IMG/VR virus record: IMGVR_UViG_3300042988_000513 | Span: 1-56,126 of that record | Source of the DNA: a virus | Lineage: Duplodnaviria; Caudoviricetes | Reading direction: 5' to 3' (one strand) | DNA length: 56,126 nucleotides | Program-made: the position numbers and the translations under genes | Part shown: positions 1,580 through 24,055 of the stretch, one piece after another | How positions within the stretch are numbered: position 1 is the first letter of the stretch | How the letters are laid out: each line of letters begins with the position of its first letter | Notes under the pieces: model-generated | Seen by the model: only the letters and a program-made list of their open reading frames with translations | What the model was told of the DNA's origin: nothing | Database searches by the model: none

Positions 1580-2848
1580 CTACGTGATGTCTGCCAAGAC
1601 GAAGGAAAAGGTCATCGCGTCCAAGTCGATTGGCGCCGCAGTGTTGTTCACAAGGATCAGATTGATCGCATCTGCAGAACATATGACCGAGAAAGACAGC
1701 CCGGCAGTAAGCGTTCCACCCGTCGCAACCAGTGCCGCGAAGTCTCCAGCCGCAACACCAGTAAGCGAGAAGGCTGTAGACGCCTGCTCTCCGGCAGCGA
1801 TAGATCCGATGTCCGTGGAAGCCGACGTCCAGGTCATGATGCCCTTGATGGTCGCCAGCGTGGCGCCAGAGATGGCGGCTCCGACCCGAGCCCCACTCGT
1901 AAGCGCAACCTCCCCGGTAACGGCGTTGGCCGTGGAGTTGGCTGACGGGGCAGCAGCGCCAGCGCCGTCGGCGGACGTGTCCGAGTACGTGGTTGCCGTA
2001 TTGTTGGCAATCGTTGCAATCAGCTTCCAGTCGCCAGCGTCGCCCGCATCGGTACGGTAGACCTTTCGAGCCGTGCAGCGAGCCGATCCAAGCGGAATTC
2101 CGGTAAGTCCAACCGTGCCGTTTTCTTCAGACGTTGTAACGACGTTGCTCTTTGCGCACGGTAGGCTCTCGCCTTCCGGCGAAACGAGCGTCACCTTGTA
2201 GCTGTGCGTTCCGGCCGTGATAGAACCGCCAGCGGAAGGCGCCCCGGCAACCGGCGTAACTGGCTGCGCCTCCGCCGGGTACAGACGAAACGCAGAGGTA
2301 GCAGCGATTCCGCCACTCAGCGAGGCCAGGCCGGCAACGGCAAGAGTGCTGGACAGGTCGACTTCCCCTGTAACGCCGAGGGTTCCGGCGATTGCCGTGT
2401 TCCCGGATCCGTCTCCGGAGACCGTAAATTTGTTTGTGTCAACGGTAATTCCGCCATTCAGCGCAGCGGTTCCGCCGACCGTAAGGCTCCCGGTCGTGCC
2501 AACGTTTCCGCTCGTGTCTGCAACGGTGAACGCCGTGCCGTCTACCGCGATGCCGCCATTAAGCGAAGCAGCGCCAGCAACCTGCAGCGTACCGGCAACA
2601 ACCGTATCGCCAGACCCGTCTCCGGCAACCGTGAACTTGTTGGTATCAACGGCGATACCCGCATCGGCGTTAACGACCCCGGTAAACGTCTTGGCGCCGG
2701 CAATCGTCTGCGCGCCGGTCGTCACCAAACCAGCCGCAGACCCGCTGGCAGACGGAAGCTTAGACGCGATATGGTCAACCGACTGTAGAGCGATCTTGCT
2801 AGTGTCGCTCGGGTTCTGCATGACTGGACCACTAAGCCTACCCGACAT
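1580..2848 (-). CDS. Tail fibre-like protein
   Basis: Gly/Ala/Thr-rich; three ~34-aa GI(A/T)VD..F(T)V repeats; QTIAGAKTF motif; FN3-like segment YKVTLVS...RKVYRT. Confidence 0.75.
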   Translation of the reverse strand: MSGRLSGPVMQNPSDTSKIALQSVDHIASKLPSASGSAAGLVTTGAQTIAGAKTFTGVVNADAGIAVDTNKFTVAGDGSGDTVVAGTLQVAGAASLNGGIAVDGTAFTVADTSGNVGTTGSLTVGGTAALNGGITVDTNKFTVSGDGSGNTAIAGTLGVTGEVDLSSTLAVAGLASLSGGIAATSAFRLYPAEAQPVTPVAGAPSAGGSITAGTHSYKVTLVSPEGESLPCAKSNVVTTSEENGTVGLTGIPLGSARCTARKVYRTDAGDAGDWKLIATIANNTATTYSDTSADGAGAAAPSANSTANAVTGEVALTSGARVGAAISGATLATIKGIMTWTSASTDIGSIAAGEQASTAFSLTGVAAGDFAALVATGGTLTAGLSFSVICSADAINLILVNNTAAPIDLDAMTFSFVLADIT

Positions 2849-2863
2849 GGTACTGCCCCTTTC

Positions 2864-5746
2864 TTACTTGCTAGTTTCGCTAGACGACCCGAAGCCGTCC
2901 TTCTGGTAGTGAAAGTCGATTGCGATTGCAGGAACGCGCTCGGCAATGTGCGCCTCAAGAACAGGCCTATAGAAGCGACACAGTAGGACGTTTGAAATCC
3001 CGATATCCGTTCCAGCTCGCGAACCGGCAATTGTCCCAAGGTCCGTAACGATATGCTTCCAGCGGCTATCGCTCCCCAGAACCTCGTTGGCCTCGATGTG
3101 GATCGTGTAGCCGTATACGACAACGCCAGTGTCTGCGGCCTCTGCGATATCCGCGTGGGTCACGGCATAGGAGATCGTGTACACGCCACCAGTGTCCACG
3201 ACGGCCGTGATTCGGTGGTTACCATCGTATGTGCCCTCGTCGGCGTCGCTAACCACGATATTCTGCCCGACCTTCAATCCGTGCGTCGCGCCGAACGTAA
3301 TTGTCGCGACGTTGCCGGATAGTGATGTTTTCGTAGACGCCGGCGCGGTAACTCGGAAGTTTCCGGCCGTGTTTGCCCACGCATACTCGAGTCCCCAGCG
3401 CACCGTCCCGGTCGTGGTCGTCGGCATCGTCCAATGCACGTGAGCCTTGATGTCCGAGCCAACCTTGTAAGAGTGCGGCATCTGCGCGTTGAAGACCAAG
3501 TCATCTTCGCGCGAGTCCAGGAACCCCCACCCAAAGACGCCGGCAGTCGAACCAGTTCCGGTAGCGTCCATGATCCGCTGCATGACAGGAGTTGTGCCAG
3601 CGCTTGCGGAAAGCCCCGTGAGCTGGAAGCTCAGGTCGTCCCAGCCGCCTGCCGTCTGAGTAAACAGCGGGCTGGTGACGCTAGTGGAGAACGTCTTGGC
3701 CCCGGCGAGAGTCTGTGTGCCCGTGCTGACCTTGCCCGCCGCCGATGCTCCAGCGTCGGGGCAGATGACGGACCACGTGCCGGCCCCGGAGGCGTTAGTG
3801 CAGACCCAGCCGATCTCGGCGCCAGAGGAGGGAGCGGAGTTGTAGACGATACTGCCAACGGTCCACGTTCCAGACGTCGGAGCCGCAGACGCCCACGTCA
3901 CGAGCTGGCCAGTGGTAGAGCCGTCGCCGCCAAAGCGCACCTTCTCGTTAAGCTGGGCCGGAATGGCCTGGATCTTTGCCGTCCTAGTGGACCCGGATGG
4001 CGTTGACACGTAGGGAATACTGAGCGGGTCAATTCCCTTTGGCGGGTTCTTGATCAGCATCAGGTCCGTAACCTTGATCCAGTCTCCAATCTGAGGCTGA
4101 GTAATAGATAGGAACAGGTACAGTCCTGACGTGAAGCTAGTAGTAACGCTGAAATATGCGCTAAATCGTCTCCACGAAGTATCGGCATACGGATACTGTG
4201 CGTTGTCTGGGTATCTTGTTCCGTTTCCCACTGACGCGGTAAGATCCACAGAGAAGCCTGGCTGGGCAAGAGTGCCGCGATACATCGCGGTAGACGCCTT
4301 AACCCATCCGGTAATCAAGAACACATCTCCAGCAACAGGCATGTCGGCCACGTAGAGCAACTTTCCGGCCGACGCCATGCTTGTGCTTAGAGCCGCAAGC
4401 TTCATGGACGTTCCGGTAGACACACCGTCTGCAGGCTCGTGAGTGATGTCGCTCTTGGCCGCGTCTACCTCGTAATACTCCAAGATGTCTGCCGCAGCAC
4501 TGAATGACGATCCTGGAAGCTGATTTGTCACCAGGCAGTCTGGCGCGTGTCTTCCAACAACACCACTTCCCAGTGGGGCGCGAGTGTTAATTCCGTTGTC
4601 TATAACATCAGAACAGGCAGACCCGCCCCACACGTCGCTAGCATCAACGCTAAACGAGGAGGGAGAATCTACCTTCAACATCGTTCTGGCGTTACCGCCG
4701 CTAGTTGGCTCGTAGTATCCGGAGAACGTGTTCTGAAGACCCGCCTCGTGCCAGATCCCGCCAAGCGCGTTGTTGCTAATGTCTCCTAGCCACTTGTTGG
4801 TAACTCCTCCAACTACATGAATACCCCAAGCCCGATTTCCGGCAGTCTGACAGTGCCTAAACGTGTTATAGTTTCCGTCAATCTTGATTCCGTCCCCTAC
4901 GGCATAGTACGCCTTGCACGATTCAAACTTGTTGATGTAGGCGTCTTCGATGTAGATGCCCTGGGATCCCTTGTACGTGTAGACGTTGTCGAACTCGTAC
5001 CTAGAACCGTTGTAAACGTGCAGGCACGGGCCAAGCCCAACGTCTCCCTCTTCAACTACATCGTCGTTTCCTAATATGTAAACGTTTCGCATAGCGAAAC
5101 CGCTGTCGCCACGGCTAGTTCCGTCGATCTTGACGCCAGCAGTACCGTCTCTGGCGGTGCAGTTTAGGCACGCAGGCTGTATGTTTAGACCGACGCCATA
5201 CGCTCCCTCAACAACAATAGGAGTCGTCGGAAACGTCAGCGTAGTTTTGCAGATGTACGCATTTCCGGGTAGCAACCTGAGCCGGCCCCCACCTCCTGCG
5301 TGCAGAGCGGCAAGAGCTTGGTCGATGTGTGGCTTGTCGTCGTTCCACCCGTCAACGTGCGCACCGAACTGGTTGGGCGTAACCGTCTTCTTTTCGGCGT
5401 AACCGGAAGGGCTGTCATACGCACCAAGCGTAAGACCAGAGTCCCATCCGCTGAATATCTGCGCGTCCTCTGGGGCGTCGAGCTGGCCGGCAATCGCCAG
5501 CGTTCCTCCGGACGCGTACAAGAACATCGCGCCGCGCTCCATGCGCAGAGCAACCGTCATCGGGAACGCTACTGCGCTGGCGATCTTGTAGGTCCCCGGA
5601 GGCATGAACACGGTAGCGCCGGCCGCAGCAGAGATTGCTGCGTTGATCGCAGCAGCATCGTCAGCGGAGCCAAGTCCCGTAGCGCCATAAGACTTGACAT
5701 TGAAGACGCCTGGAGGTGAGACCGTCGAGCCGAGTTTGATTGACAT
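2864..5746 (-). CDS. Tail spike/depolymerase with beta-helix and carbohydrate-binding-like domain
   Basis: FNVKSYGATG..DD.AAINAAI..VFMPPGTY pectate-lyase-like start; Asn-ladder beta-helix; CBM-like middle. Confidence 0.8.
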   Translation of the reverse strand: MSIKLGSTVSPPGVFNVKSYGATGLGSADDAAAINAAISAAAGATVFMPPGTYKIASAVAFPMTVALRMERGAMFLYASGGTLAIAGQLDAPEDAQIFSGWDSGLTLGAYDSPSGYAEKKTVTPNQFGAHVDGWNDDKPHIDQALAALHAGGGGRLRLLPGNAYICKTTLTFPTTPIVVEGAYGVGLNIQPACLNCTARDGTAGVKIDGTSRGDSGFAMRNVYILGNDDVVEEGDVGLGPCLHVYNGSRYEFDNVYTYKGSQGIYIEDAYINKFESCKAYYAVGDGIKIDGNYNTFRHCQTAGNRAWGIHVVGGVTNKWLGDISNNALGGIWHEAGLQNTFSGYYEPTSGGNARTMLKVDSPSSFSVDASDVWGGSACSDVIDNGINTRAPLGSGVVGRHAPDCLVTNQLPGSSFSAAADILEYYEVDAAKSDITHEPADGVSTGTSMKLAALSTSMASAGKLLYVADMPVAGDVFLITGWVKASTAMYRGTLAQPGFSVDLTASVGNGTRYPDNAQYPYADTSWRRFSAYFSVTTSFTSGLYLFLSITQPQIGDWIKVTDLMLIKNPPKGIDPLSIPYVSTPSGSTRTAKIQAIPAQLNEKVRFGGDGSTTGQLVTWASAAPTSGTWTVGSIVYNSAPSSGAEIGWVCTNASGAGTWSVICPDAGASAAGKVSTGTQTLAGAKTFSTSVTSPLFTQTAGGWDDLSFQLTGLSASAGTTPVMQRIMDATGTGSTAGVFGWGFLDSREDDLVFNAQMPHSYKVGSDIKAHVHWTMPTTTTGTVRWGLEYAWANTAGNFRVTAPASTKTSLSGNVATITFGATHGLKVGQNIVVSDADEGTYDGNHRITAVVDTGGVYTISYAVTHADIAEAADTGVVVYGYTIHIEANEVLGSDSRWKHIVTDLGTIAGSRAGTDIGISNVLLCRFYRPVLEAHIAERVPAIAIDFHYQKDGFGSSSETSK

Positions 5747-11802: not shown

Positions 11803-14800
11803 CTAGTCGCTCAGCGGCCTAAGCGGATTCAGAGGCTGGTTGTCGCGCTTGCCGTACAACAGGCCCTCAATGAACTCTACAGGCTCGTCAACGACCTCAA
11901 ACTCTCCTTCCATGAGGTAGTCGGCCATCCTGACGTTCTGCACGCCAAGCCCGAGCGACCCGGCAGCCCGGAGCCACGCCTTGGAGGCCCTATCTTGGTC
12001 GTCTCCGTTCTTGGACTCGTTGACGGCCTCCCAGAATGAATAAATAGCGGCAACGCCAGGGGATGCCCTTGGAGACATCTTTCTTGGGCTCAAGCCAGAC
12101 TCGGCAATTGGGCCAACGATTGGAACGGTAAGTAGCGGAGCCATGGCCGTTTTCCGCAGGAACCAGTTGCGGTAGCGCTCCCAGTCGTCGTCTCCGTCCT
12201 CCGGCTCCGGCCCTCGACCGCTCAACCACTCTGACAATGGACCGTAGATCATGGCCATGGCAATCCCCGTAGCGACGGCCTTGGCGACCTGCTTTGCGGC
12301 CTCCTTGCCCTTTATGTGGCCGGTCGAAGCCAGGTAGACAACGTGGGCCAACTCGGCGTTGCGCTGGAAGGCCCTATTGAAGAATCCTCCCATGAACACG
12401 ATCATGCCAACTGCACCCTTATCCCTGAGAAGGGCCGACTTCTCGTAGCCGTACTTGGGCGGAACCCACCTACTGGCCTTGTCCTCCGCGAAGTCAACTG
12501 CAATCCGATCCATGTCATCAACCGACAGGTCGGTGCGCCCGGCCAACTCCTTGAGCTTGATTCGATACGCCGCCAGCCACGCCGGCCGAAGGACAGCCTT
12601 CTCAATGGCTTCGGCGACTACATATCCGTATTTCTTCTGGAATGTCATGTACGGGTTGTTGGCAAACGACATTCCAGCAAAGGCGCGGTTGATCTCGTCG
12701 GACAGTTCGCGCGACCATCCCTCTTTGCGGCTACGCATCCATCCAGACTTCTGGTCGATGAAGTTCCCCCAGTAGCCCCAGCCGCCTGCAACATCCTTGA
12801 TTGCCATAGCGTAGTCGGTCTTGCTTAGGCCGAACGAGTTCAGGACGATGCCTGGCGTATCGCCGAAGAACGTCTTAAAGTTGAAGGCCATGATTTGAAG
12901 GCCAAGTCCGGCCTTGGCCATCCGAAGGGCCCTGGCGATAGTAAAGGCTCCATGCGTCATGACCTCCATATTCCTATCGTTGCCAATGTCCTTCAGCCAC
13001 GGCAGGAACTGACGCTGCCACTCGGTACCCAGGCGCTCCTTGAACTCGCGCTGCAGGTCGGAGTCTAGCAGCAGACGGCTGACGCTCATTAGCGGCTCGC
13101 GGAAGGCGATATCGTGAGCGGCCTGGGAGATGTGAGCCTGGAACACGGACGGATCCAGCGCAATCACATCGGCAAAGTTCTCGGCGCGTGACTTTGTGTT
13201 CGAGTGAGACGTGTGCGCAGTGCTATAGGACTGGTCAAGCACGTCTGCCGCATACTCGACGGCTTGGCGCTCGGCCACAGAAGAGTTTCCGCGACGGTCG
13301 TACACGGCCGGGATGTACCCGCCGCGATACGTTCCGTGCCTGGTAACAATCTGGCGGGCCTCGATCTCGTCCGGCCTGATGCCAGACACGCGCTCTTCAA
13401 CGTCAAAGGCGAGCGGCTTTAGCGCCTCGTTGGCGTCCCAAATTGACTGGACCCAGTCCCACTCTTCCTTGGTCAAAGCATACGGCCCGTCAAGCAACGC
13501 ATTCCACACCTCGGCCTCGGTAATGCCCCTACCCTTGGTCAGGCGATCCATGTTGCTTGAGTTTCCAGAGTTGGCAGCCATCATAAGAAGCTCAAAGCGC
13601 TTTGTCGGCGCCTTGATGTCGGCAGAGCCATCTGACCTAGCGCCACTTCTGTGCGTTGGGAACAGCTTATTCCCGTCGATGCTGTCGCCAAGATGCCGCT
13701 TAACCTTATCTGGCATCCTGTCCATCGCGTCCAGGATGCTCTTGCAGGCCCCGTTAATCAGGTCGTTCTCGCGGGCCTGGGCTTCCTTGAGCGGCTTGAA
13801 GATTGCCCGGTTAAGCCAGGACTCTGACCAGTTGTTTCCGGCCGCGAAGCCAAGCTTTGTCCGTGCCTCAAGCGCGTCCCCTGCCATCTTGCGGAGCGTC
13901 GGCTTCCTTCCCTCGGTTGGAGTCGAACTTGACAGCGTAGGGCGCATCGGCAGAGCGGCGCGGATCTCGTTTGTGATGCGCGCCTTGATCTCGTCCTTCT
14001 CGTACTTCTTGCCGTCAACGATGGTTGTCTCTGCGTTTCTGAACGCCTGCTGGAACTGCTTGAGGGCTGTAAGAGCGTTACGCATTTCTCCAACAGACAG
14101 CACGCGCATGTCTCTCGGCTTGTACAGAATCATCGCCAGAGCATCGGCGTCGAACTTGGCAACGATTCCCTCGTTCTGCTCCATGGCGCGAACGGCCTCA
14201 TGGATCGAGTGCGGCTGCTTGTCGCGCTCCTGGGGCTCGGCTAGATTCAGAGCCTCAAAGATCGTCTCGATTGCGTCGCGATACGCAACAGCGGCTTTGG
14301 CGGCGTTTGTTGGCTTTCCGTTCTCGTCCCTGGCGGCAGCAGCCTTTCCCATGCGCGACTGCCACCTGTCGCCAGCCATGTCCTCGGCAATTTTCAGAAC
14401 CCGGTCAAAGTCGTCCTTTGCATCCTCCAGCTCCCTCGCAAGGTAGAAGTTTAGCAGTTGCTGCTGCTTAGCGAAGACGGCCCGCTCCACGTCACCCTTG
14501 GCTGCCGCCTCCATGGCACGCTTGGCAGCCATCCGCTCCGCCTGACGAGCCCGGCCAACGTTGATGGCGCCAGCCTGGGCGTCGTTCGCCAGCTCTCGCG
14601 CCGCACGCTTGATGGACTCGAGCGGGACAGACGGCTTGCCTGGACGCGCCTTGCGCTCAAGAGCGCGCCACTCCGCGATAAGCCAATCAGCCGTATGGTC
14701 TCCGTGCAGGCCCTTGGAGACCTCGGCCGCCAGGGCGTCCCTGTCCGTCAGCATCGGCCCTAAGCGCTCCTCGAGAATCGCCTTGCTTCGCGCCGCAACA

Positions 14801-17800
14801 TAACTATCCCTATCGGGATGATTTTCCAGCGCGTCTGCCATCGCCTTCCCGTCAGGGAATCCCAGAACTCCGGCCATCTCGTCGAGCGAGGGGCCTTCCT
14901 CGCCGGGTCCGCGCCATAGCCCAGATGGCGGACGAATCTCGGCCCCTGACTGCGCCTTGCCCTTCTTGGCCGGCTCATCCTTTGGGGCCGGAGGCATACG
15001 CTCGACGCCATCGAATAGCACGTCCTCTGCGAACTCGAGCGTAGCAGGCTTCTCGAACATCGTGGCCTGACGCGGATCGACTGCGGCAACCGACGCCCAG
15101 CGCTTGAACGCCTCAGAAACCTTCTTCTGCGTGGCTCCGTCGAGAAGCGAAGCCATGGTCCTGGCATCGTCTCCGAATACGGTAGCTTCCCCGAACAGTC
15201 CGGGCTGACGAAGCAGATCCTGCAGCGACAGCTTGCGCCGCTTGGCGTCGGCCAGCAAGTCCATGGCCTGCTGTACCGTCTCAATCTCGTCAAGCGCACC
15301 ATTAATTCCGGCCACCCGGATCAGGTGTGGAACGGCCCGCTCAATCTTCTTTAGAAGCTCGGGAGCGGCAGCAGCAAGCCTATCTCCGGTTCCAACGACA
15401 CGCCCCAGGAACATGCCCTCAATTCGGTCCTTGGCCTCGTCGGTTAGATTTCCCCCGGCAAGCCACTGTGCCTGGTTCTGGTCGGTAACTATTCCGTCTC
15501 GTCGCAGAATCTTGGCGATGTCCTGCGGCCTGTCGCGCATTGCGTCGCGCAACGAGGAGTCATCCGACAGGAGCCCGGCAAGGTCCTGAACGCTATCCGA
15601 AGACAGCATGCGAGCCTCGGCAACAGCCTTGGCCCTTGGAGACAGTGCCTGCGTCATGCCCTCGTTAAAGCGCCGAACGGCGGCCTGTAGATCCGACTTA
15701 GGAGCATCGGAAGACACGCCGTCGATAACGCGCACCAGGACCGGAGCGTCCATCCTGGCGATTTCCTTGGCCGACATGCCGAAAGATGACGCCCGGTCAA
15801 TCAGCGCAGACCTGTAGGCCTCGAGCTGCTCCTTGTTGGAGAAGCCTCGCAGCATCATCATTGACCGGCCGTTTCCGCCAAGAACGAGATGTTTCTTGCC
15901 GGACGTGACGAGCGGCGGGCCATCCACGGCAGACGGAGTATTAGCGAGCAGGAGCGAGGGATTAAGCGCCTGGGCGCCAGAAACAACCTTGGCCTGCTCC
16001 TCGGGCTGGCGATGATACTCGCGTTCCTGGACTTCGGCGGGATAACCTTTGGTCGGCTGGAACGTAGTCGGGCTGTGGGACGGAAGCAGATCCTTGGCTT
16101 CGATGACCTTGTAGGTGGCCGCCTCTCCGGACTTGTTCTGTGGAGTAATGACGGAAGTCGAGCGCGAGCCGCGCTTTCCGCGTCTAGCCAGGCGCTTCTC
16201 GGCAATGGCGTCTCTAAGTTTCTCCTCTATCGCTGCGGCGGCCTCCTCTCCGACAGACTCAACAACGTCCTGACGGTCAAGCTTGCCGGCTTCAATTGCA
16301 GAGCCGTCTTCTCCGATAACGCGCCCGGTCTTGACATACTCGGCGGCGCGAGTCTCCGGAAGCGCATCAAACTCCTTCGCGGCCTCGGCCACCGCCGAAG
16401 CCTCGTGAGGCCTAAGATTCTCGTTGGCCTCTCGAAGCTCCGCCTTCAGCTCGCGCAACCGGGCAGCCAGCTCCGCCTTGGAGTGCGCGGCTTCCTGGGC
16501 TTCGAGATACGCCTGCCACTCGCCGGGCTGCATTCCGGCCTCTTCCGGCGAGCGGAACATGGGACGCATGCCGGCCTCGTCCTTGGCGGCCTCGATCTCC
16601 TCGTCTGTCGCAAGCATCCGGTCGAAGACGGCTCGGACCTCGTCGTTAAGACCGGCGTCTTTCAGCGACCCATAGATGCGCTTGAGCCAGTTGCTGAAGC
16701 GCTTGAATGCGCCCTTGAGAGACAGCGACGGAGCCTTCCCCTCTAACAGGTACGCCTCGAACAGCTTCGCGAACTTCTCGTGCTGCTCGGTCCCGACTTC
16801 CGCCCTTGACTGAACTCCGAACTCTCGGAGAATGGTCGCGTAGTCGTCCTTGATCTGCTGCGGAGCGTCGGCGCGCTCGCTCAGGTCTCCAAGCATCTCC
16901 AGGTAGATGTGGCCGCTTTCATGGAGGAACGTAGAGAGATCGCTGTTCTTCTTCAGGAAGACGTTGCTGATCAACTGCCCGGCCTTGCGCACGAACTGGA
17001 CGTAACCGCGAGAGTCAGACTCCTTGCCCTCGTAGTACGTCTTGATGTCGCGGATCTCGTTCTCGTCCCAGATGACGAAGTTGTAATTGCCCTCGCCGGA
17101 GCCTCGTGAGTTGCCGTCCAGGTAGCGCAGTCCGGGGATTCCAACTTTGTTCAGCGCCTCGGATGCAGCCTGCTCGTTTCCCCATCGCTCGGAAAGGGCC
17201 CGATAAACCATGGCCCCGGTCGCCTCTTCGGACTCGACTCGCTCACCGTTTGCCAGCCTAATTTTCTCCCGTCCAGATTCGTCGTCGATACGAACAGCGA
17301 GTCCTGCTTCTCGAAGCGCCTTGAGCACCGAAGGCGGCTGCTCAGCCATCGGCCTGTCGTAGTCCAGCAGCCGGTCGCTCTCTGGCACGTCAACGGAGTA
17401 GAGTTGGCCCTGCGCGTCTTGGATCTGGTCAACGGTCGTGCGGTCTGCTAGCGCCTTGGCATTGCCCCACAGTCTGACCATTGCCTCCGCGTCGGCAAGG
17501 TCTAACTCCGATCCGACCTTGGTTACCGAAACTGGGTTGTTCGCTACCTTATCGTATCGCTCCTTAGCCCTCTTGTACTCGCGATCAGCCTTGAGCCGAG
17601 CCTCAAGCAGGGCGTCACCCTTGCTGGCGCCACTGTTTAGCTGAGTGTGCAGCTCTTGCGTAAAGTAGTTGTGATTCGGACCATAGGTGCGCTCGCCATC
17701 ATTTATAACCGGTGCGCGATTCGCCAGTGTCTTTCGGTAGAACTCGCCGACGGCCTTATCGCCAGCGAAGTACATGCCCCAGCCGTAGGCCTGGGCGCCC

Positions 17801-20800
17801 TCTCCGGTCCCGATCTTCTGGAGGCTAAAACCCGTCTGCTCAATCCCGCGATGGGGAGAGCCGTGCCAGGCGGGCTGCTCGTAGATGTTGGGGGATGGCT
17901 GGAACAGCATGTGAGGGCGGCCGGGCCCTCGGGGGTCAACTTGGCCGACTTCTTCGTCGAGTCCAGACAGCTCGTGCGCTAGATAAGTCGCTCCCCGTCC
18001 CCCAGCGTCAAGCTCAGGATTCGGACGACCCTTCGCTGCTTCGGCGCGGAGCTGCTTTGCTCGCTCGCTGTCGGGGGCGTGGATTCGGGACTTGGCAGCG
18101 TAGTAGGCCTTTCCTCGGCCGGCTGCTTCCTCTCGCTGCTTGGCTGCTGGGAGTTCAACCCCATCGGCTTGGTGTTCGGCATCTGCTCCTCCGGCAAGTC
18201 CATAGGCATAGTGTAACCCTTCCTGCTCCAAAATGCTACTATCGTCCAACTCCATGACTTCGTGCGCGTTTCCGAGCAGGCTTCTGACTTCCTCAAAGAA
18301 TGCCTTTAGTTCCTGCTCGCTGTTTCCCTGCGCGCGAATCTCGTCACCACTAACGTGCGCCACGTCAAAGCGGTTGCCGCCTCTGCGAACCATGCTGCGG
18401 ACGACCTTGCGCACCATTTCATCTGTGATCTCGTGTCCAAACAGCACATCCATGGCCTTGACTGCGCGGATGTCTGCCGAGACAACGAAGTCCTTTGGAG
18501 CGCGGCGTCGAACCTCGTCCCAGCCGGCCTTGGTCAGCGCCCCGGTCTCCTTCTCAAAGTACGCCTCCTCGGCCGCCTTGCGAGCGTTGAACGTGCCGTG
18601 GCGCTCGACCAGCGGCACTTGTAGGGCTCGGCCCTTGGTTCCAAGTCTTGTCTTTGACGGCTGGACGTTGGCTGTTTCAGGGAGCCTGTCTTCGCGCTTG
18701 GGGAACTTGCCTTCGGATCGCTTGGTGTCCGTGTGGGCAGACAACGTGTCGCCGCCACGGTGCTTGGTTGCGGTCCAGTCCTCGCCCGCCTTGCGCTCCA
18801 TGACCGTGCCGACGAGCGGAATGTCCTTGAGGCCCTCGGGCAGCTTGGAGCGGAGTTGCTCAATGAGCGCATCCATCTCGGCCTGGTCACCGAAGGCAGG
18901 AAGCCACAAGTCCCCTCCGACCTTTCCGGCGTTCGGATCAATCTCGTGCAGCGCCTTGGCGATGTCCCTGAAGACGTCGTCTGCGAAGTCGTGCCCCTTT
19001 CCCTTAACGTCGTTCAGATCCTTTTTGTATCCGAAGCTAAGAACGCCGTAGTTCGGCCGCGCCTCGTCGGCGGGCATGTCCCTGATTCCGCGCTCGTGCA
19101 GTAGGTCTGTTGTGGCGTCCCGGTAATACAGGTTTCGCTTTCCCTCGTCGTCCATCTCGCGATAGGCCCGCTCCAGAATGCCGGACGCCTCGGTGCGATT
19201 AACTGGAGGCTGCTGCTGGGCCGCCTCGGCCTGCTGGGCGCCGTCCTGGTGCCGCTGGACCGTGACGACGTACTGACGCATCATGTCTTCTACTGGCACG
19301 CCGCTACGCTTCGCCATCGTGACGACTACCGAAGCCAGCTGCTCAACGCTGGCAGCGCTGTCCTCGACCTTCATGTGCTGCTTGCGAGTCTTGCCGTCCT
19401 TGCCGGTCTGCTCTCGCTCGTAGGACTTTAGCAGCTGCGACTGGACTACCTGCATGAACTCGCGCTCTGCGTCGGTAGCCTGCTCAGACTTGGCGCGCTC
19501 GACCAACGCCTTTGCCTCGGTCTGAATCGAGGCCTGCTTCTGCGCGGCCTGGGCCGGAGTGTCCATGAATGCATGGCCGATGACGTGCCCGCCGTTAACC
19601 AGAGCGTCGCCAAGCGGCTTCGTGGCAATCTTCGCGGCCCACTCGCCAACAGGGATCTCGAGCTTCGACCCGGTAACGATGGCGGCGTTGATTCTCTTGT
19701 ATCCGTCCGGCCCGAGCAGATCGGTGGCGGCCTGCTCGAGCGGCTGGCCGGCCTCTTGGAACAGCGTCAGCAACTGCTCGGCGTCGGCGTACATATGCGT
19801 TACTGGGGCGCCAGACTCGCCGGTGGCCTTCTCGACTACCTTGGCATAGCCAGCCGGGCTGGCCTTCGCGAGCTGCGTTTGCGTGCCCTTGTGGACTGCG
19901 GAGACTTGCTGCGCGGAGCTGGACTGCTGGGCGCGCTCGATGGACATACCGACAACATGGCTGCCATATCCGATTGGCCCAAGGCCTGCGGCGCCAATCC
20001 CGCCAGCGACAAAGGCTCCGCCCGCGTCACCAAGCATGGCTGCAACGTCAGGGCCGGACGTCTCGCCCATCTTGAGCTTTAGAGCGTAATCAATAACGTT
20101 CTGCAGCGTCTGCTGCTGGGCCTCCTCCTTGCCCTCCGCATACATGCCAGCCACAAGTCTGGAACTCCAACGCTTGCCAGCCTCCTTGAGCAGCGTCCTG
20201 AACTTGCCATCTGAGGCCAGCCAGCGCGCAACCTCCTTTTTCTCAAGCCCAACCAGCTTGTCGCCGATTGGCCCCAGCATCCTGAGTTCCGCCTCGTTGC
20301 CGCCAACCTCGATGGCGGAGGCGATTGCCGCATAGAAGATGGTCGCGCCAATCAGCGTAGGCTCGTCGAGTTCTCCGTCTGGCCCCTTGACCTTCTTGAA
20401 CTGTCGATAGGCGCTTCCGCCCTCCGCAACGAAAGAAGCCGTGTATCCAAGAGCCCTGCCTACAACCTTGGCAGCCTTTCTGCCAGCCATGGGCCCGAAC
20501 ATCCTACCAACGCCAAGTCCTGCGGCAGCGCCAAGGGCCTGCGCTCCAAGGCTTTCCGGGTTAGAGGCGAACGCCTGAACCGCATCAAGCCCAAGCTGCA
20601 TGGCCGGACCCTGGCCGTACCACGGAACGTCGCCAAGCTCTTGCTCCATAGCGACGAGCTTCTTTTCGTTCTCGAAAACATCCTGTCCACGGATCTTGCC
20701 AATCATTACCTTGAAAGCCGTAACGCTTGCATCGTGGTCCCTGCGATAATACTTGTATGCAGCAGGCAGAATCTTCAGGCGCTCGACGCCCTCAAGCTTC

Positions 20801-21573
20801 GCCTCGGGAGCCGTAACAGTCTGGATGATGTTTGGCTTCCTAGCCTCGGGAACAGACTCAAGGGTAGAGATGGCCTTATTGGCGCTCTCTTCGGAAGCGG
20901 CCTGCATCTTCTTGGCTTCGCCGGCCAACTTCTCGTCGCCGAACAGGGCGGCAGAGCCAGCCATCTTTCGGCCAACCTCGGCCTGAGACGACGCGGCAAA
21001 GCCAGACTCCATGGCGGATCCGAGCTTTCCGACTGCGTCAGCCGCGAAAGTGAGCCCCCGCTTGACGAAGCTACCAGGCTCAACCCGAGACGCAACTTCG
21101 CCAGTTCGCAGTTCTTCGGAAATATCCCTAAGCGCCGGATCCTTCAGAATCGGCCCGGCCAGGTGCTGATGCTCAAGTAGCGTCTCGACCAGGTCTGGAT
21201 AGTCACGCTCAAGCCTGTCCGTGTCGTACTCGGAGACCTCGGCGGCCTTGCTGAACTTGTCCAGGTTTGCGTCGATGACGTCCGGATGTAGGCCGGTCTT
21301 CTCGGCCATTCTGATGACGCGCTGTCCACGCTCTCCGATTCCGAATCGGTCGGCTTCGTACAGGGCCTTGATGCGATTGCTCCTAATGGACTTCTGCTCC
21401 CGGCGTTGCAGCGCATCAGCAATGTCCGGATCAACGGCGTCCTGCGGCTCTGTCTGCCCGGAGCTTCGCCTTGCTACTGCCTCAAGAATATCCGGATCGT
21501 TCTCAAGCGCAGAGGTGTCTTGCGCCGATTCCTGGTTGTTATCGGCGCCAGCGAGGTCGTTTTCCTGTGCCAT
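11803..21573 (-). CDS. Giant internal virion/ejection polyvalent protein (two GGDEF-like, ART-PolyVal-like, HExxH metallopeptidase-like, DdrB-like ParB domains)
   Basis: 3256 aa, third of three ejection genes; motifs LND..GH..AD/GGDLW, DI..VK..GH..TD/SGDEI, WHGSPH..IGTGEGAQAYGWGMYF, TFLHESGH, DLLPSH..VQEREY..GGNGR. Confidence 0.85.
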   Translation of the reverse strand: MAQENDLAGADNNQESAQDTSALENDPDILEAVARRSSGQTEPQDAVDPDIADALQRREQKSIRSNRIKALYEADRFGIGERGQRVIRMAEKTGLHPDVIDANLDKFSKAAEVSEYDTDRLERDYPDLVETLLEHQHLAGPILKDPALRDISEELRTGEVASRVEPGSFVKRGLTFAADAVGKLGSAMESGFAASSQAEVGRKMAGSAALFGDEKLAGEAKKMQAASEESANKAISTLESVPEARKPNIIQTVTAPEAKLEGVERLKILPAAYKYYRRDHDASVTAFKVMIGKIRGQDVFENEKKLVAMEQELGDVPWYGQGPAMQLGLDAVQAFASNPESLGAQALGAAAGLGVGRMFGPMAGRKAAKVVGRALGYTASFVAEGGSAYRQFKKVKGPDGELDEPTLIGATIFYAAIASAIEVGGNEAELRMLGPIGDKLVGLEKKEVARWLASDGKFRTLLKEAGKRWSSRLVAGMYAEGKEEAQQQTLQNVIDYALKLKMGETSGPDVAAMLGDAGGAFVAGGIGAAGLGPIGYGSHVVGMSIERAQQSSSAQQVSAVHKGTQTQLAKASPAGYAKVVEKATGESGAPVTHMYADAEQLLTLFQEAGQPLEQAATDLLGPDGYKRINAAIVTGSKLEIPVGEWAAKIATKPLGDALVNGGHVIGHAFMDTPAQAAQKQASIQTEAKALVERAKSEQATDAEREFMQVVQSQLLKSYEREQTGKDGKTRKQHMKVEDSAASVEQLASVVVTMAKRSGVPVEDMMRQYVVTVQRHQDGAQQAEAAQQQPPVNRTEASGILERAYREMDDEGKRNLYYRDATTDLLHERGIRDMPADEARPNYGVLSFGYKKDLNDVKGKGHDFADDVFRDIAKALHEIDPNAGKVGGDLWLPAFGDQAEMDALIEQLRSKLPEGLKDIPLVGTVMERKAGEDWTATKHRGGDTLSAHTDTKRSEGKFPKREDRLPETANVQPSKTRLGTKGRALQVPLVERHGTFNARKAAEEAYFEKETGALTKAGWDEVRRRAPKDFVVSADIRAVKAMDVLFGHEITDEMVRKVVRSMVRRGGNRFDVAHVSGDEIRAQGNSEQELKAFFEEVRSLLGNAHEVMELDDSSILEQEGLHYAYGLAGGADAEHQADGVELPAAKQREEAAGRGKAYYAAKSRIHAPDSERAKQLRAEAAKGRPNPELDAGGRGATYLAHELSGLDEEVGQVDPRGPGRPHMLFQPSPNIYEQPAWHGSPHRGIEQTGFSLQKIGTGEGAQAYGWGMYFAGDKAVGEFYRKTLANRAPVINDGERTYGPNHNYFTQELHTQLNSGASKGDALLEARLKADREYKRAKERYDKVANNPVSVTKVGSELDLADAEAMVRLWGNAKALADRTTVDQIQDAQGQLYSVDVPESDRLLDYDRPMAEQPPSVLKALREAGLAVRIDDESGREKIRLANGERVESEEATGAMVYRALSERWGNEQAASEALNKVGIPGLRYLDGNSRGSGEGNYNFVIWDENEIRDIKTYYEGKESDSRGYVQFVRKAGQLISNVFLKKNSDLSTFLHESGHIYLEMLGDLSERADAPQQIKDDYATILREFGVQSRAEVGTEQHEKFAKLFEAYLLEGKAPSLSLKGAFKRFSNWLKRIYGSLKDAGLNDEVRAVFDRMLATDEEIEAAKDEAGMRPMFRSPEEAGMQPGEWQAYLEAQEAAHSKAELAARLRELKAELREANENLRPHEASAVAEAAKEFDALPETRAAEYVKTGRVIGEDGSAIEAGKLDRQDVVESVGEEAAAAIEEKLRDAIAEKRLARRGKRGSRSTSVITPQNKSGEAATYKVIEAKDLLPSHSPTTFQPTKGYPAEVQEREYHRQPEEQAKVVSGAQALNPSLLLANTPSAVDGPPLVTSGKKHLVLGGNGRSMMMLRGFSNKEQLEAYRSALIDRASSFGMSAKEIARMDAPVLVRVIDGVSSDAPKSDLQAAVRRFNEGMTQALSPRAKAVAEARMLSSDSVQDLAGLLSDDSSLRDAMRDRPQDIAKILRRDGIVTDQNQAQWLAGGNLTDEAKDRIEGMFLGRVVGTGDRLAAAAPELLKKIERAVPHLIRVAGINGALDEIETVQQAMDLLADAKRRKLSLQDLLRQPGLFGEATVFGDDARTMASLLDGATQKKVSEAFKRWASVAAVDPRQATMFEKPATLEFAEDVLFDGVERMPPAPKDEPAKKGKAQSGAEIRPPSGLWRGPGEEGPSLDEMAGVLGFPDGKAMADALENHPDRDSYVAARSKAILEERLGPMLTDRDALAAEVSKGLHGDHTADWLIAEWRALERKARPGKPSVPLESIKRAARELANDAQAGAINVGRARQAERMAAKRAMEAAAKGDVERAVFAKQQQLLNFYLARELEDAKDDFDRVLKIAEDMAGDRWQSRMGKAAAARDENGKPTNAAKAAVAYRDAIETIFEALNLAEPQERDKQPHSIHEAVRAMEQNEGIVAKFDADALAMILYKPRDMRVLSVGEMRNALTALKQFQQAFRNAETTIVDGKKYEKDEIKARITNEIRAALPMRPTLSSSTPTEGRKPTLRKMAGDALEARTKLGFAAGNNWSESWLNRAIFKPLKEAQARENDLINGACKSILDAMDRMPDKVKRHLGDSIDGNKLFPTHRSGARSDGSADIKAPTKRFELLMMAANSGNSSNMDRLTKGRGITEAEVWNALLDGPYALTKEEWDWVQSIWDANEALKPLAFDVEERVSGIRPDEIEARQIVTRHGTYRGGYIPAVYDRRGNSSVAERQAVEYAADVLDQSYSTAHTSHSNTKSRAENFADVIALDPSVFQAHISQAAHDIAFREPLMSVSRLLLDSDLQREFKERLGTEWQRQFLPWLKDIGNDRNMEVMTHGAFTIARALRMAKAGLGLQIMAFNFKTFFGDTPGIVLNSFGLSKTDYAMAIKDVAGGWGYWGNFIDQKSGWMRSRKEGWSRELSDEINRAFAGMSFANNPYMTFQKKYGYVVAEAIEKAVLRPAWLAAYRIKLKELAGRTDLSVDDMDRIAVDFAEDKASRWVPPKYGYEKSALLRDKGAVGMIVFMGGFFNRAFQRNAELAHVVYLASTGHIKGKEAAKQVAKAVATGIAMAMIYGPLSEWLSGRGPEPEDGDDDWERYRNWFLRKTAMAPLLTVPIVGPIAESGLSPRKMSPRASPGVAAIYSFWEAVNESKNGDDQDRASKAWLRAAGSLGLGVQNVRMADYLMEGEFEVVDEPVEFIEGLLYGKRDNQPLNPLRPLSD

Positions 21574-23531
21574 TAGAAGCCCCTGCGTTTCATTTCAACG
21601 AAGAACTCTTTAGACAGCTTTCCGTCTTTATCCTTATACTCTGGATGCTCGTCTAGAATAGCATTTACTGCCGCCTCTTTCTCGGCCTTGCGCGCATTAT
21701 TCTTGGCCCCGGAAGACACCTTCTTGCGCAGGCTATTAAGCGCCTTGGCTGAGTCTTCCTTGCTCGGCGCCGGTTCGTCTCCAAGCTTCATGTCCCGAGG
21801 CATTGGCTCGGCGGAAGGCCTGTCCTCATTCGAAAGCCTGCTCTTCTGCTTTTCCTTCGCATACGGAACGAACTTGTCGCCCGGCTTGGTCTCAAACTTG
21901 TACTTAGCAGACCCGCCAAACCACTCGTCTCCGTTTTCGTCACCAAGGACAAGGCCTGACGCAACAGCTTCTCGAACCTCGTCGCGCGTAGGATTGCGCT
22001 TGTTCTTTGTCCTGAACGAGTCGTAATAGTCGCGTACCCATCCCTGGAAGGACTCAAGACGCTTCTTGTTGGCAGACCCCTTGACGGTAAATCCGAGTCT
22101 GCCGGCCTCTTCTTCGGCGATTGACTTCGTATCCGAGTAGCCAACCCGGCCGCCGCCGCTAACGTTGTTCTTGTCCTTCTGCTGTGCGGCCCTGATGCGC
22201 TGGGCCATCTTCGGAGATGCAGACGGGAACTCCTCTTCAACGTTGGCCTCGGAAGCCTCGGCCTCGTTTTTTGAAGACATCTCCTGATAGCGATACCAGG
22301 CCTCCTGGTCCTGCTCCTCCTGCCAGCGCCTATCCTCTGCCGAGCCGCGAATTCGCCTGTTGGCGCGCTCGTCTGCAGCCTGCGCCTTGCGCTCGATTGC
22401 CTCCCACCTGTCGGGGGCATGCTCGACGAGCCACGTTCTGGTCTCGGGAGGAATCGCACGAAGCCCGGCCGCGCCCCTGGTAGGGCTTCTAAGGTAGTCC
22501 GTCATGGCAGACTCATAAACGGCCTGCTGCTGCTTCGACCACTGACCCTCGGTTGCCGTGGCAATGCTACGAGCCAGGGTTCTAAGGCGCTCCTTCTCCT
22601 TCTCTGGCAACTTCAGCTGCTCGGCGGCATCAACGATTGCAGGACCGTCAACCTTGGCAATCAGATTCCCATTTGGTAGCCGAACGCCTTCGGAGTGCTT
22701 TCCGAGAAGCCCGGAGACGTGCTCCTCAACGCGCTGGCGGAATCCGATCTCGCGAACGACCTCGCCAAGCTGCTCGGCATCCTTGGGATCCAGGTCCTTC
22801 TTGTGGGCCTCAAAGAACGCCTGCACGCGGTCTGGCCTGGGCTCCTTCCCGTCGGGGGGACGAATCATGGCCCGGAGGGCCTCTCCGTATGCCTTGGCCT
22901 TCCACTCGGCCTCGACCAACGGCCTGGCCTCATAGGACAGTCCACGCCTCTCGTGAGACGCTCCAAGCTCGTTCTGAGCAAACTCTCCAATAGCGTCCTG
23001 GACGGCCGAGATATCATCGTTCGCACTGAGCCTAATCGAATCCAGAACGGATGCCTCGCGCGCCTTGAACTTCTGATCTTCAAGCGCACCAATCTGCTCG
23101 GACTGGTGTAGAACCATGGAGCGGTCAACGCGGTTGGCCTCGAGGCCAGCCCTTCGGTTGAACAGAGCACGCTGCCTATCGTTGCCAAGGCGCTGGGAGA
23201 TGGCCTGCTTGTGGCTCTCCATCGCCGTCAGCGTGTCGTCATAGTGCTTGAGAGCGTTCTCGCCCTGCAGGCTCTTATACGACGCGAGGGCCTGGTTGAG
23301 ACCGTTTCCGTACTCGGCAAGGGCTCCCTCTACGGCCGAGTTGTCGGCCCGGTCCTGGTGGGCCTGGTACTGCTGGAGGCCGTGGCTCAGGTTGCTGAGG
23401 CCAGCGCCGGCGTTCATGAGGCCTTTGGCGGCAGCCTCCCCGAACGCTCCGGCAGGGGCGTCAGCCGCGCCGGCCATGCGCGGCCCCTCTGAAACCTGCT
23501 GTGGGGCCTCGGGAACCGGAATCCTAGGCAT
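21573..23531 (-). CDS. Internal virion (ejection) protein, T7 gp15 position
   Basis: MPRIPVP N-terminus, helical Ala/Glu-rich, synteny. Confidence 0.65.
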   Translation of the reverse strand: MPRIPVPEAPQQVSEGPRMAGAADAPAGAFGEAAAKGLMNAGAGLSNLSHGLQQYQAHQDRADNSAVEGALAEYGNGLNQALASYKSLQGENALKHYDDTLTAMESHKQAISQRLGNDRQRALFNRRAGLEANRVDRSMVLHQSEQIGALEDQKFKAREASVLDSIRLSANDDISAVQDAIGEFAQNELGASHERRGLSYEARPLVEAEWKAKAYGEALRAMIRPPDGKEPRPDRVQAFFEAHKKDLDPKDAEQLGEVVREIGFRQRVEEHVSGLLGKHSEGVRLPNGNLIAKVDGPAIVDAAEQLKLPEKEKERLRTLARSIATATEGQWSKQQQAVYESAMTDYLRSPTRGAAGLRAIPPETRTWLVEHAPDRWEAIERKAQAADERANRRIRGSAEDRRWQEEQDQEAWYRYQEMSSKNEAEASEANVEEEFPSASPKMAQRIRAAQQKDKNNVSGGGRVGYSDTKSIAEEEAGRLGFTVKGSANKKRLESFQGWVRDYYDSFRTKNKRNPTRDEVREAVASGLVLGDENGDEWFGGSAKYKFETKPGDKFVPYAKEKQKSRLSNEDRPSAEPMPRDMKLGDEPAPSKEDSAKALNSLRKKVSSGAKNNARKAEKEAAVNAILDEHPEYKDKDGKLSKEFFVEMKRRGF

Positions 23532-23533
23532 GG

Positions 23534-24055
23534 CTACTCCTTCTTAGACTGCATGGCGCCGATCTGGCCGATGATGTCTCCGCCAGTATTGGCGCTTGCC
23601 CCAAAGATGTTGGCGATTCCGCCGACCCACAGGGCCTCTCGACCGGCCTCCAGCATCTGCTTGCGCTGAAGAGCCTGGGTGCGCTGCGAGCGATACCCCA
23701 GGGCCTCGCGGTAGGCGTTGTTCTTGATGACTGCCGCGTCGTACTCGCCAAGGGCCCGCGTCTGGGCAATCGCAGCAGCGGCCGAGCCAGAGTTTGCAAC
23801 CACTCCAGACGCACCGTAGGCGGTCTTCTGCTGGCCTACCAGCGAGCCGTACTTTTGCTGCGACTGAAACTCCTGCTGGCGGCCCTTCTGGAGCGCGACC
23901 TTGGCGGCAATGCTGGCAATGTCCGCATTGTGCTGGGCCTGGTTCTGCTCGTAGTCGTTATTCTTCAGGGACGCTTCGCCCTGTGCTCGCGTGCCAACGG
24001 CATTTGAAATGCCACCGACGGCGGAAGTAATGATTGAACCAATGGCCGAGCCCAT
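23534..24055 (-). CDS. Internal virion (ejection) protein, T7 gp14-like
   Basis: Gly/Ala-rich hydrophobic ends, GQQKTAYGASGV..SGS motif. Confidence 0.75.
   Translation of the reverse strand: MGSAIGSIITSAVGGISNAVGTRAQGEASLKNNDYEQNQAQHNADIASIAAKVALQKGRQQEFQSQQKYGSLVGQQKTAYGASGVVANSGSAAAAIAQTRALGEYDAAVIKNNAYREALGYRSQRTQALQRKQMLEAGREALWVGGIANIFGASANTGGDIIGQIGAMQSKKE

Follow-up and report, generated by a model that had tools for sequence, protein, structure and literature searches.

A fused GGDEF pair as a predicted single-active-site pseudo-heterodimer and core module shared across a large uncultivated family of apparent gp16-slot virion proteins

Locus and fold of the two GGDEF domains

The stretch of DNA analysed here (the window, 56,126 bp) is the complete virus record IMGVR_UViG_3300042988_000513, with a CheckV completeness of 100%. 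Its minus strand carries the gene of a giant protein, P0001, and the interval 18150-19125 within this gene, corresponding to P0001 residues 817-1141, had been interpreted from the letters alone (the sequence-only reading) as a tandem of two GGDEF-like domains, degenerate in a complementary manner, which would pair within one chain inside an ejected virion protein. All six peptide strings quoted in that reading are present in the translation of P0001. The results presented below suggest a fused GGDEF pseudo-heterodimer with a single predicted active site; by sequence comparison, the pair belongs to the core of a large uncultivated family of virion proteins in the slot of T7 gp16. The pair and its elements are arranged as follows.

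11803..21573, minus strand: P0001, giant open reading frame (ORF) of 3256 residues, polyvalent-type (ORF list and translation)
18709..19191, minus strand: domain 1 (D1), residues about 795-955, two stalk helices and a GGDEF fold predicted to be catalytically dead (AlphaFold2, Foldseek, profile against PDB)
19036..19038, minus strand: Ser846, where active GGDEF domains have the metal-binding Asp (alignment column of 154 sequences)
18979..19023, minus strand: D1 base-pocket segment K851..N854-D855..G860-H861..D865, retained in the family
18904..18918, minus strand: degenerate D1 signature loop GGDLW, residues 886-890 (alignment)
18619..18708, minus strand: inter-domain linker, residues about 956-985, without regular secondary structure (DSSP on the AlphaFold2 model of the pair; predicted local distance difference test, pLDDT, 83-93 by block)
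18124..18618, minus strand: domain 2 (D2), residues about 986-1150, two stalk helices and a GGDEF fold with intact catalytic set (VIA-align, profile matches)
18472..18474, minus strand: Asp1034, metal-binding Asp of D2 (154 of 154 sequences)
18448..18450, minus strand: Asp1042, at the base-contacting Asn position of D2 (alignment column of 154 sequences)
18340..18351, minus strand: D2 signature loop S1075-G-D-E1078 (SGDEI; alignment)

The motifs of D1 are located at residues 819-828, 846-865 and 884-890 (window 18904-19119), those of D2 at residues 1007-1015, 1033-1051 and 1073-1079 (window 18337-18555). Antisense ORFs over the pair (e.g. 18233..19051 on the plus strand, 272 residues) were dismissed as a common side effect of a GC-rich coding strand.

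P0001 carries two adjacent, homologous GGDEF-fold domains, each positioned behind a short helical stalk. Of the 47 PDB sequences which a profile of the pair built from five sequences retrieves at E ≤ 10, the first 45 are GGDEF proteins (best E 3.6e-8), and the matches fall separately on profile positions 18-159 (D1) and 213-339 (D2), the latter domain matching, among others, the diguanylate cyclase of T. maritima. With a profile of D1 only (30 sequences) 48 matches are obtained at E ≤ 0.01, the best of them (4.3e-12) to a diguanylate cyclase. Since D1 and D2 are aligned with each other by hhalign at a probability of 99.3% (E 2.7e-20), the two domains are paralogues. Searched with phmmer as a whole, P0001 gives only weak diguanylate-cyclase matches in the PDB (E 0.046-0.086), and beyond the GGDEF region no PDB sequence is matched.

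The AlphaFold2 (AF2) model of the pair, calculated on a 30-row alignment, comprises 371 residues with a mean pLDDT of 93.1 and a predicted template modelling score (pTM) of 0.89; for D1 alone the values are 95.1 and 0.87, respectively. Each half of the model consists of two short helices followed by an alpha/beta domain of the GGDEF type. Foldseek returns 86 PDB matches at E ≤ 1e-3 for the pair and 54 for D1 alone, and among the matches listed these are GGDEF proteins throughout in both cases. Several of the D1 matches span stalk helix and GGDEF domain together (SiaD, DgcB), and the GGDEF domains of LapD and FimX occur among the structural matches as well. In VIA-align (48,161 chains) about 140 residues within model positions 198-364, i.e. 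D2, superpose on GGDEF domains with Z 14-17 and a root mean square deviation of about 2-2.7 Å. Class III cyclases follow with Z 9-11 and the Panoptes polymerase mCpol (9mnr) with Z 9.5, while polymerases and reverse transcriptases score lower. An assignment to polymerases of the Cas10/mCpol type was considered and, because of this gap in Z-scores, ranked below the GGDEF assignment; the signature loop moreover reads GDE, not GGDD, and no Cas10 chain is found among the structural matches listed by Foldseek or VIA-align. For the two-domain model single-domain GGDEF matches dominate in both programs, among which no chain spans both domains in one arrangement. Profiles against the PDB, hhalign, AF2, Foldseek and VIA-align hence bear out the two adjacent GGDEF-like domains of the sequence-only reading.

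The relative placement of the two domains is confident as judged from the pTM of the two-domain model. In order to treat the domains as separate chains, D1 (model residues 1-166) and D2 (195-371) were submitted to complex prediction, which gave interface scores (ipSAE) of 0.73, 0.73 and 0.72 compared to 0.01 for the best control. The runs share at least 91% of their contacts, and the pLDDT of the partner is at least 78. The pass mark of this procedure, which D1 and D2 reach, is also reached by 58 of 80 solved complexes and by 2 of 110 mismatched pairs, counts which are only a rough guide here, as an alignment of our own was used. Each chain contributes its N-terminal (stalk) helices, the Gly-His segment (model residues 72-73 and 258-259, respectively) and the signature loop (97-98; 286-287 and 289). 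Mapped by hhalign, 13 of the 21 mappable D1 interface residues land on D2 interface residues and 17 within one residue of them, against a background of 20% (34 of 166 D2 residues in the interface; binomial tail 4e-5). By this correspondence the models support a pseudo-two-fold interface with the active-site faces turned to each other, as is required of a catalytically competent GGDEF dimer. The intramolecular pseudo-heterodimer anticipated by the sequence-only reading is therefore favoured by the models, in which both signature loops lie at the interface.

Conservation of the catalytic set and variation of the base pockets

A word-indexed search yielded only five relatives of P0001, two of them with a GNAT domain after the pair and one labelled as a GGDEF protein in its source. 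Scanning 1.84 billion cluster representatives by HMMER with the profile of the pair brought up 7293 proteins (E ≤ 1e-3), of which 508 score E ≤ 1e-10 and 196 score E ≤ 1e-30. Almost all of the top 150 HMMER matches are 2,000-4,500 residues long, and one stretch at about residues 700-1150 spans the whole 363-position profile. The alignment to which all counts given here refer contains 154 segments, namely P0001, the five word-search relatives and the other 148 of the best 150 HMMER matches (P0002 and P0006 belong to both sets); 147 of these segments span the full pair. The identity of the family sequences to the window is about 22-50%. In IMG/VR contigs 14 related loci (L002-L015) were found, and some relatives contain a weak LPD22 match. 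A genome-contig search with P0001 alone gave 60 stretches that fit the search pattern and no relative among them; likewise, 50,697 GenBank phage records contain no match to the pair by tblastn (E ≤ 1e-3) and none to window positions 18000-22000 by blastn in distant mode.

Within D2 the catalytic set is invariant. Asp1034, which aligns with the Asp of the 'vDLagFK' segment in the T. maritima diguanylate cyclase (4urq), is found in all 154 sequences, as are Gly1076, Asp1077 and Glu1078 of the signature loop. The residue preceding GDE is mostly His (76) or Ser (75), rarely Gly (2) or Gln (1); loop variants such as SGDEF or AGDEF can be active. After GDE the family mostly has Tyr (98) or Phe (49), and in a few sequences Ile (4) or Leu (3). 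At the base-contacting position 1042 the family has Asn in 133, Asp in 18 and other residues in 3 cases, which puts the window into the Asp minority, whereas position 1051 is Asp in 121 and Asn in 31 sequences. Combined, the two positions read ND in 101, NN in 30 and DD in 17 of the 154 sequences, the last being the combination of the window (Asp1042/Asp1051). An RxxD motif resembling the inhibitory site (I-site) upstream of the loop is present in 3 of 154 D2 and in none of 154 D1 sequences, and in neither domain of the window.

The opposite pattern is seen in D1. The position of the metal-binding Asp, Ser846 in the window, is occupied by Ser in 67 and Thr in 43 sequences (together 110 of 154), and is acidic in only 24 (Asp 14, Glu 10). 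Not one of the 154 D1 signature loops contains G[DE]E. At the same time K851, N854 and H861 are retained in 150 of 154 sequences each, D855 in 131 and R869 in 132; at position 865 there are 79 sequences with Asp and 70 with Asn. The N854/D865-type pocket reads ND in 77 and NN in 70 sequences. Because the G[DE]E loop is missing throughout and Ser or Thr prevails at position 846, D1 is predicted to be catalytically dead, yet its pocket for a nucleotide base appears intact.

The pockets of both halves vary in a concerted manner. Written as D1 pocket, D2 pocket and first loop residue of D2, the commonest types are NN/ND/Ser (43 of 154) and ND/ND/His (41), followed by ND/NN/His (15) and NN/NN/Ser (14), while types with DD account for 17; the window belongs to the latter with ND in D1, DD in D2 and a Ser-GDE loop. 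Thus the base-pocket residues co-vary with the first loop residue across subfamilies and the catalytic residues stay the same, and this variation may reflect a diversified nucleotide specificity.

The sequence-only reading had regarded both domains as degenerate, each keeping what the other lacks. For D1 the degeneration holds across the family. D2, on the other hand, is not degenerate, given its metal Asp and GDE in every sequence, and a D2 lacking the base-contacting Asn, on which the supposed complementarity was built, is confined to a minority. With D2 intact and only D1 dead, the arrangement is one of a dead and a live half rather than of two half-broken sites that complement each other. 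The design of the family, as far as residue conservation can tell, would consist of one dead half that retains a base pocket and a second half in which the catalytic set is complete.

On these grounds we favour, with moderate confidence, the interpretation of the pair as a constitutive pseudo-heterodimeric GGDEF nucleotidyl cyclase with a single active site and without an I-site. It appears very improbable that the duplicated fold is a structural relic which merely serves to space or pack the internal core and has no ligand chemistry. The giant protein indeed gives nothing in an NCBIfam scan, as might be expected of such a relic, but active-site residues kept in 154 of 154 sequences at about 22-50% identity indicate selection on chemistry, not on shape.

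The giant protein and its neighbourhood

Outside the pair, the following features of P0001 and of the phage genome were identified.

About 16894-18093, minus strand: P0001 residues 1160-1560 with the motif 'YGWGMYF' (1263-1269); phrog_873 at 1388-1515, E 4.3e-14
16909-16923, minus strand: HESGH motif (HExxH, zincin-like), residues 1551-1555 (motif in the translation)
15724-16122, minus strand: ddrB-like ParB domain, residues 1818-1950 (Pfam PF18763, 60.4 bits, cut-off 27.6)
21573..23531, minus strand: 652-residue protein with a lysozyme-like N-terminus, placed in the gp15 slot (residues 1-223 match phrog_1044 'endolysin', E 5.3e-8)
23534..24055, minus strand: gp14-like internal virion protein, 173 residues (Pfam T7_gp14, E 2.6e-5, 24.6 bits, cut-off 27, profile positions 11-169 of 187)
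54577-56100, plus strand: large serine recombinase/integrase near the end of the record (phrog_95, E 6e-61)

To assess which modules are shared, pieces of P0001 were compared by phmmer with the 154 proteins. The pair (790-1160) is found in 145 of them, the segment downstream of HESGH (1560-1800) in 125 and the two C-terminal pieces, 2225-2700 and 2700-3256, in 118 and 126, respectively, whereas residues 1160-1560 are detected in 49, the segment with the ddrB-ParB domain (1800-2000) in 5 and residues 2000-2225 in 4. As the pair is present in 145 proteins and the ParB segment in 5, the GGDEF pair is by sequence comparison a core module of the family, not an accessory one, and the accessory parts are rare. 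The ddrB-ParB domain of P0001 looks like a recent accessory insertion into a conserved scaffold. Relatives P0004 and P0005 contain a GNAT acetyltransferase in place of residues 1160-1560, and the position directly after the pair appears from these architectures to be a swappable effector slot. The C-terminal part (residues 2225-3243) is covered by phrog_9880 with E 3.7e-190. With the ddrB-ParB hub, the GGDEF pair and the structural-gene context P0001 displays the features of polyvalent proteins (Iyer et al. 2017).

Four windows of 19 residues in P0001 are moderately hydrophobic (405-425, 510-528, 3096-3114 and 3143-3161, Kyte-Doolittle 1.31-1.59). These segments, which flank the enzymatic centre, may represent membrane-inserting parts of the ejectosome; their location before the pair and near the C-terminus would be compatible with a cytoplasmic central region without proving one.

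The HExxH segment (to about residue 1800) has no Pfam match. It may correspond, on the basis of its motif and distribution, to the metallopeptidase hub domain of polyvalent proteins and constitute a second core module beside the GGDEF pair. Its presence bears on a different role of the pair, namely that of a nucleotide sensor or switch which, once in the host cytoplasm, binds a cyclic dinucleotide or GTP and by binding or slow turnover gates HExxH autoprocessing, channel opening or DNA translocation. The pair consistently travels with the HExxH-containing segment (1560-1800 in 125 of 154), dead D1 retains its base pocket (K851, N854 and H861 in 150 of 154) in the manner of degenerate receptor GGDEF domains, and the LapD and FimX domains are among the structural matches mentioned above. 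T7 gp16-C, furthermore, has been implicated in controlled genome translocation (PMC8954989). A pure sensor, however, has no need of a metal Asp and a GDE that are invariant in 154 sequences, and a c-di-GMP motif of the I-site type is absent (RxxD in 3 of 154 D2 and 0 of 154 D1). We consider a sensory function unlikely.

The gene of P0001 belongs to a series of genes on the same strand in the order portal, protease/scaffold, major capsid, tail tube A and B, 191-residue ORF, 173-residue ORF, 652-residue protein, P0001, and tail as well as tail-fibre/spike genes. The portal matches Pfam Head-tail_con with 495 bits. The T7_gp14-like 173-residue ORF anchors the reading of this order as gp14-gp15-gp16; for the 652-residue protein in between a Pfam scan gives no match. 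Following the gp14- and gp15-like genes and preceding the tail fibres, P0001 is by gene order in the slot of T7 gp16, the internal core or ejection protein, and this part of the sequence-only reading, an ejected-core position of the protein that carries the pair, agrees with the synteny. The phage is a podophage with a structural module of the T7 type and, because it encodes a large serine recombinase, probably temperate; a DnaB-type helicase and a replication initiator are encoded as well. Over 16001-24000, which includes the giant gene and its upstream neighbours, the AT skew is strongly negative in plus-strand numbering (-0.12 to -0.24) and exceeds that of the rest of the genome, i.e. A exceeds T on the coding strand.

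According to PMC8954989, the copy number of T7 gp16 is 4 in the core stack and 6 after ejection, and the C-terminal part of the protein reaches into the host cytoplasm. By analogy, P0001 is probably injected together with the phage DNA. The same analogy is unfavourable for the alternative raised in the sequence-only reading, a sponge or decoy that would sequester immune or signalling dinucleotides of the host. Such a function could make use of the conserved nucleotide pocket of non-catalytic D1, and an ejectosome protein inhibiting CBASS (cyclic-oligonucleotide-based antiphage signalling system) provides a precedent (bioRxiv 10.1101/2025.07.23.666291). Nevertheless, the 4-6 copies per virion expected from T7 gp16 are far too few for stoichiometric sequestration and the invariant catalytic residues of D2 would be left without explanation; for these two reasons a sponge is disfavoured and has, in our estimate, hardly any likelihood.

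The pair might also be an active enzyme of the producing cell, made late together with the structural proteins, which alters host nucleotide signalling before lysis and whose location in a core protein is incidental to delivery. The position of the gene within the late structural module agrees with this. If delivery were irrelevant, though, it would be hard to explain why almost every one of the 150 best members has the pair at a fixed position (about 700-1150) of its gp16-slot protein, and virion proteins of the polyvalent kind are commonly interpreted as effectors that are delivered (PMC5512222). Action confined to the producing cell is accordingly judged to be quite improbable.

Proposed mechanism and relation to known systems

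Returning to the single-active-site cyclase, its function can be considered in the light of the canonical enzymes. Diguanylate cyclases are normally turned on by bringing two identical GGDEF domains together. In such a homodimer each half binds one GTP and activates its alpha-phosphate for the 3'-OH held by the other half. For P0001 we infer a modified sequence of events. D1 and D2 would fold back on each other to give a permanent intramolecular pseudo-dimer, in which D2, with metal ligand Asp1034 and the S-G-D-E loop, would be the sole catalytic site. D1, devoid of metal ligands and catalytic acid, would most likely present the acceptor nucleotide, the 3'-OH of which would attack the alpha-phosphate of the nucleoside triphosphate (NTP) bound to D2, so that one turnover would lead to pppNpN. 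Upon rebinding with its triphosphate end in D2 this intermediate could undergo ring closure at the same site, similar to single-site cyclases. The product would be a purine dinucleotide, either cyclic di-GMP (c-di-GMP), made in two successive steps at one site, or linear pppNpN.

The fusion and the stalk bundle would render the dimer permanent, and the missing RxxD I-site would abolish product feedback; a hard-wired dimer without RxxD would require no activating signal and would not be restrained by its product. As the pair is built into the giant core protein in the gp16 slot, a few copies would be carried into the cell together with the DNA, and dinucleotide synthesis would begin before the expression of any phage gene. 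A permanent dimer free of feedback would suit an enzyme that has to work at once, in few copies and after refolding in a new cell.

A further-reaching version of this proposal concerns the product. It may not be plain c-di-GMP but linear pppNpN, a mixed-base or another non-canonical cyclic dinucleotide, in which case the variation of the pockets would reflect an arms race with CBASS, type III CRISPR or decoys of the Panoptes type and the pair would deliver a counter-signal or false signal for the first minutes, pre-made in the ejectosome. This version is speculative and, although conceivable, rather doubtful.

Several observations weigh against a delivered cyclase. The evidence for ejection and cytoplasmic exposure of P0001 consists of synteny, i.e. 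gene position, and of the polyvalent-protein paradigm. The C-terminal module of P0001 lacks detectable similarity to T7 gp16, and an Atlas search with the C-terminal 1032 residues matched only viral clusters of the 'hypothetical protein' kind, from which homology to gp16 gains no support. The tblastn search of the 50,697 GenBank phage records gave no cultured-phage relative in which virion proteomics would be possible. Late in infection the producing cell contains P0001 as well, and the enzyme might act there instead. The Pfam GGDEF family (PF00990, cut-off 23.8 bits) stays below its cut-off on P0001, where D2 scores 12.6-12.8 bits (E about 0.1) and D1 is not matched at all; on relative P0005 the cut-off is reached (26.3 bits). 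The predicted interface could echo the predictors' memory of solved GGDEF dimers. Finally, D2 of the window carries Asp where the base-contacting Asn is expected, Ile instead of Phe or Tyr after GDE and Ser as first loop residue, by which this copy is placed among the less canonical members of the family.

Should the single-site cyclase be correct, a second-messenger synthase would be injected along with the genome and could, during the first minutes of infection, reset the motility, the pili, the surface glycans or the nucleotide-based immunity of the host. Peptides by which phages raise c-di-GMP have been described (PMC8085984), and high c-di-GMP induces a pilus inhibitor which blocks pilus-dependent phages (PMC11461919); both reports make an early effect of c-di-GMP on the host plausible. 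The hard-wired dimer with its dead half would represent a natural experiment on the mechanism, showing if a single half-site suffices and if a cyclic or a linear product is formed, and a signal-independent, feedback-free enzyme could be of practical use. With 196 clusters at E ≤ 1e-30 and none in the GenBank phage records searched, the family moreover points to a group of T7-like, probably temperate podophages that is as yet unstudied.

The occurrence of GGDEF domains in polyvalent proteins has been reported before as 'not very widespread', and cyclic nucleotide signals have been proposed as a means by which invaders act on delivery against the host or rival elements (Iyer et al. 2017, PMC5512222). 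P0001 shares with the proteins described there the ddrB-ParB hub domain. The accessible part of that paper contains no mention of a tandem pair, of an asymmetry between dead and live half, of a gp16-slot context or of a family-wide core status; its supplementary architectures may list such cases. Full-text searches find no paper in which GGDEF is paired with 'internal virion protein' or 'ejection protein', and a search for phage-encoded diguanylate cyclases turned up only a phage peptide that binds a host cyclase. For fused, tandem or double GGDEF-GGDEF proteins only GGDEF-EAL tandems or homodimers are found among the matches listed, and a preprint that seemed a candidate for a fused GGDEF was dropped as it concerns a GGDEF/EAL protein. 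Judged from these partly accessible sources, the fused dead/live GGDEF design in an ejection-slot protein appears to be undescribed so far; the general idea of delivered GGDEF signalling is already in print (PMC5512222).

With respect to delivery, the closest parallels are T7 gp16 and phage N4. The N4 virion RNA polymerase is an enzyme delivered in a podophage ejection protein. The T7 gp16 transglycosylase is, like P0001, a multi-domain core protein; it is expelled with the DNA and its enzyme acts at once (PMC8954989). The cargo of P0001 differs from both, being a predicted nucleotidyl cyclase of the second-messenger type in a protein without detectable similarity to gp16 or to RNA polymerase. 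LapD and FimX receptors resemble D1 in having a GGDEF fold without catalytic residues, but they bind c-di-GMP via an I-site or EAL features, whereas D1 has no RxxD (0 of 154) and a substrate-base pocket instead.

The canonical GGDEF cyclases (PleD, WspR, DgcZ, DgcB, DgcR and T. maritima TM1011) share fold and homologous sequence with both halves of the pair. As in canonical and coiled-coil-controlled cyclases, a helical stalk precedes each GGDEF domain, D2 contains the metal Asp and GDE, and the dimer is predicted to be two-fold-like, its interface including the signature loops. In contrast to their signal-controlled homodimers, the domains of P0001 are fused in one chain, with a single predicted catalytic half-site, no RxxD I-site and no sensory input domain; furthermore, the first loop residue across the family is His or Ser and not Gly, and the pair is embedded in a virion protein of 2,000-4,500 residues.

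The division of labour between two paralogous domains has counterparts beyond the GGDEF family. In the C1/C2 domains of mammalian adenylate cyclase and in the alpha/beta subunits of soluble guanylate cyclase one of two sites is dead. These class III cyclases have a related core fold (Z 9-11) and likewise combine one catalytic with one degenerate site, but they belong to another family, have another dimer geometry and produce cyclic mononucleotides; the analogy is one of design only. The palm fold is also shared with mCpol of Panoptes (Z 9.5), to which the P0001 domains are much less close than to diguanylate cyclases (Z 14-17), and the loop reads GDE instead of GGDD. In Cas10, a degenerate and an active palm (Palm1 and Palm2) within one chain form one site that makes (cyclic) oligonucleotide signals, the same logic as is proposed here for the GGDEF pair of P0001.

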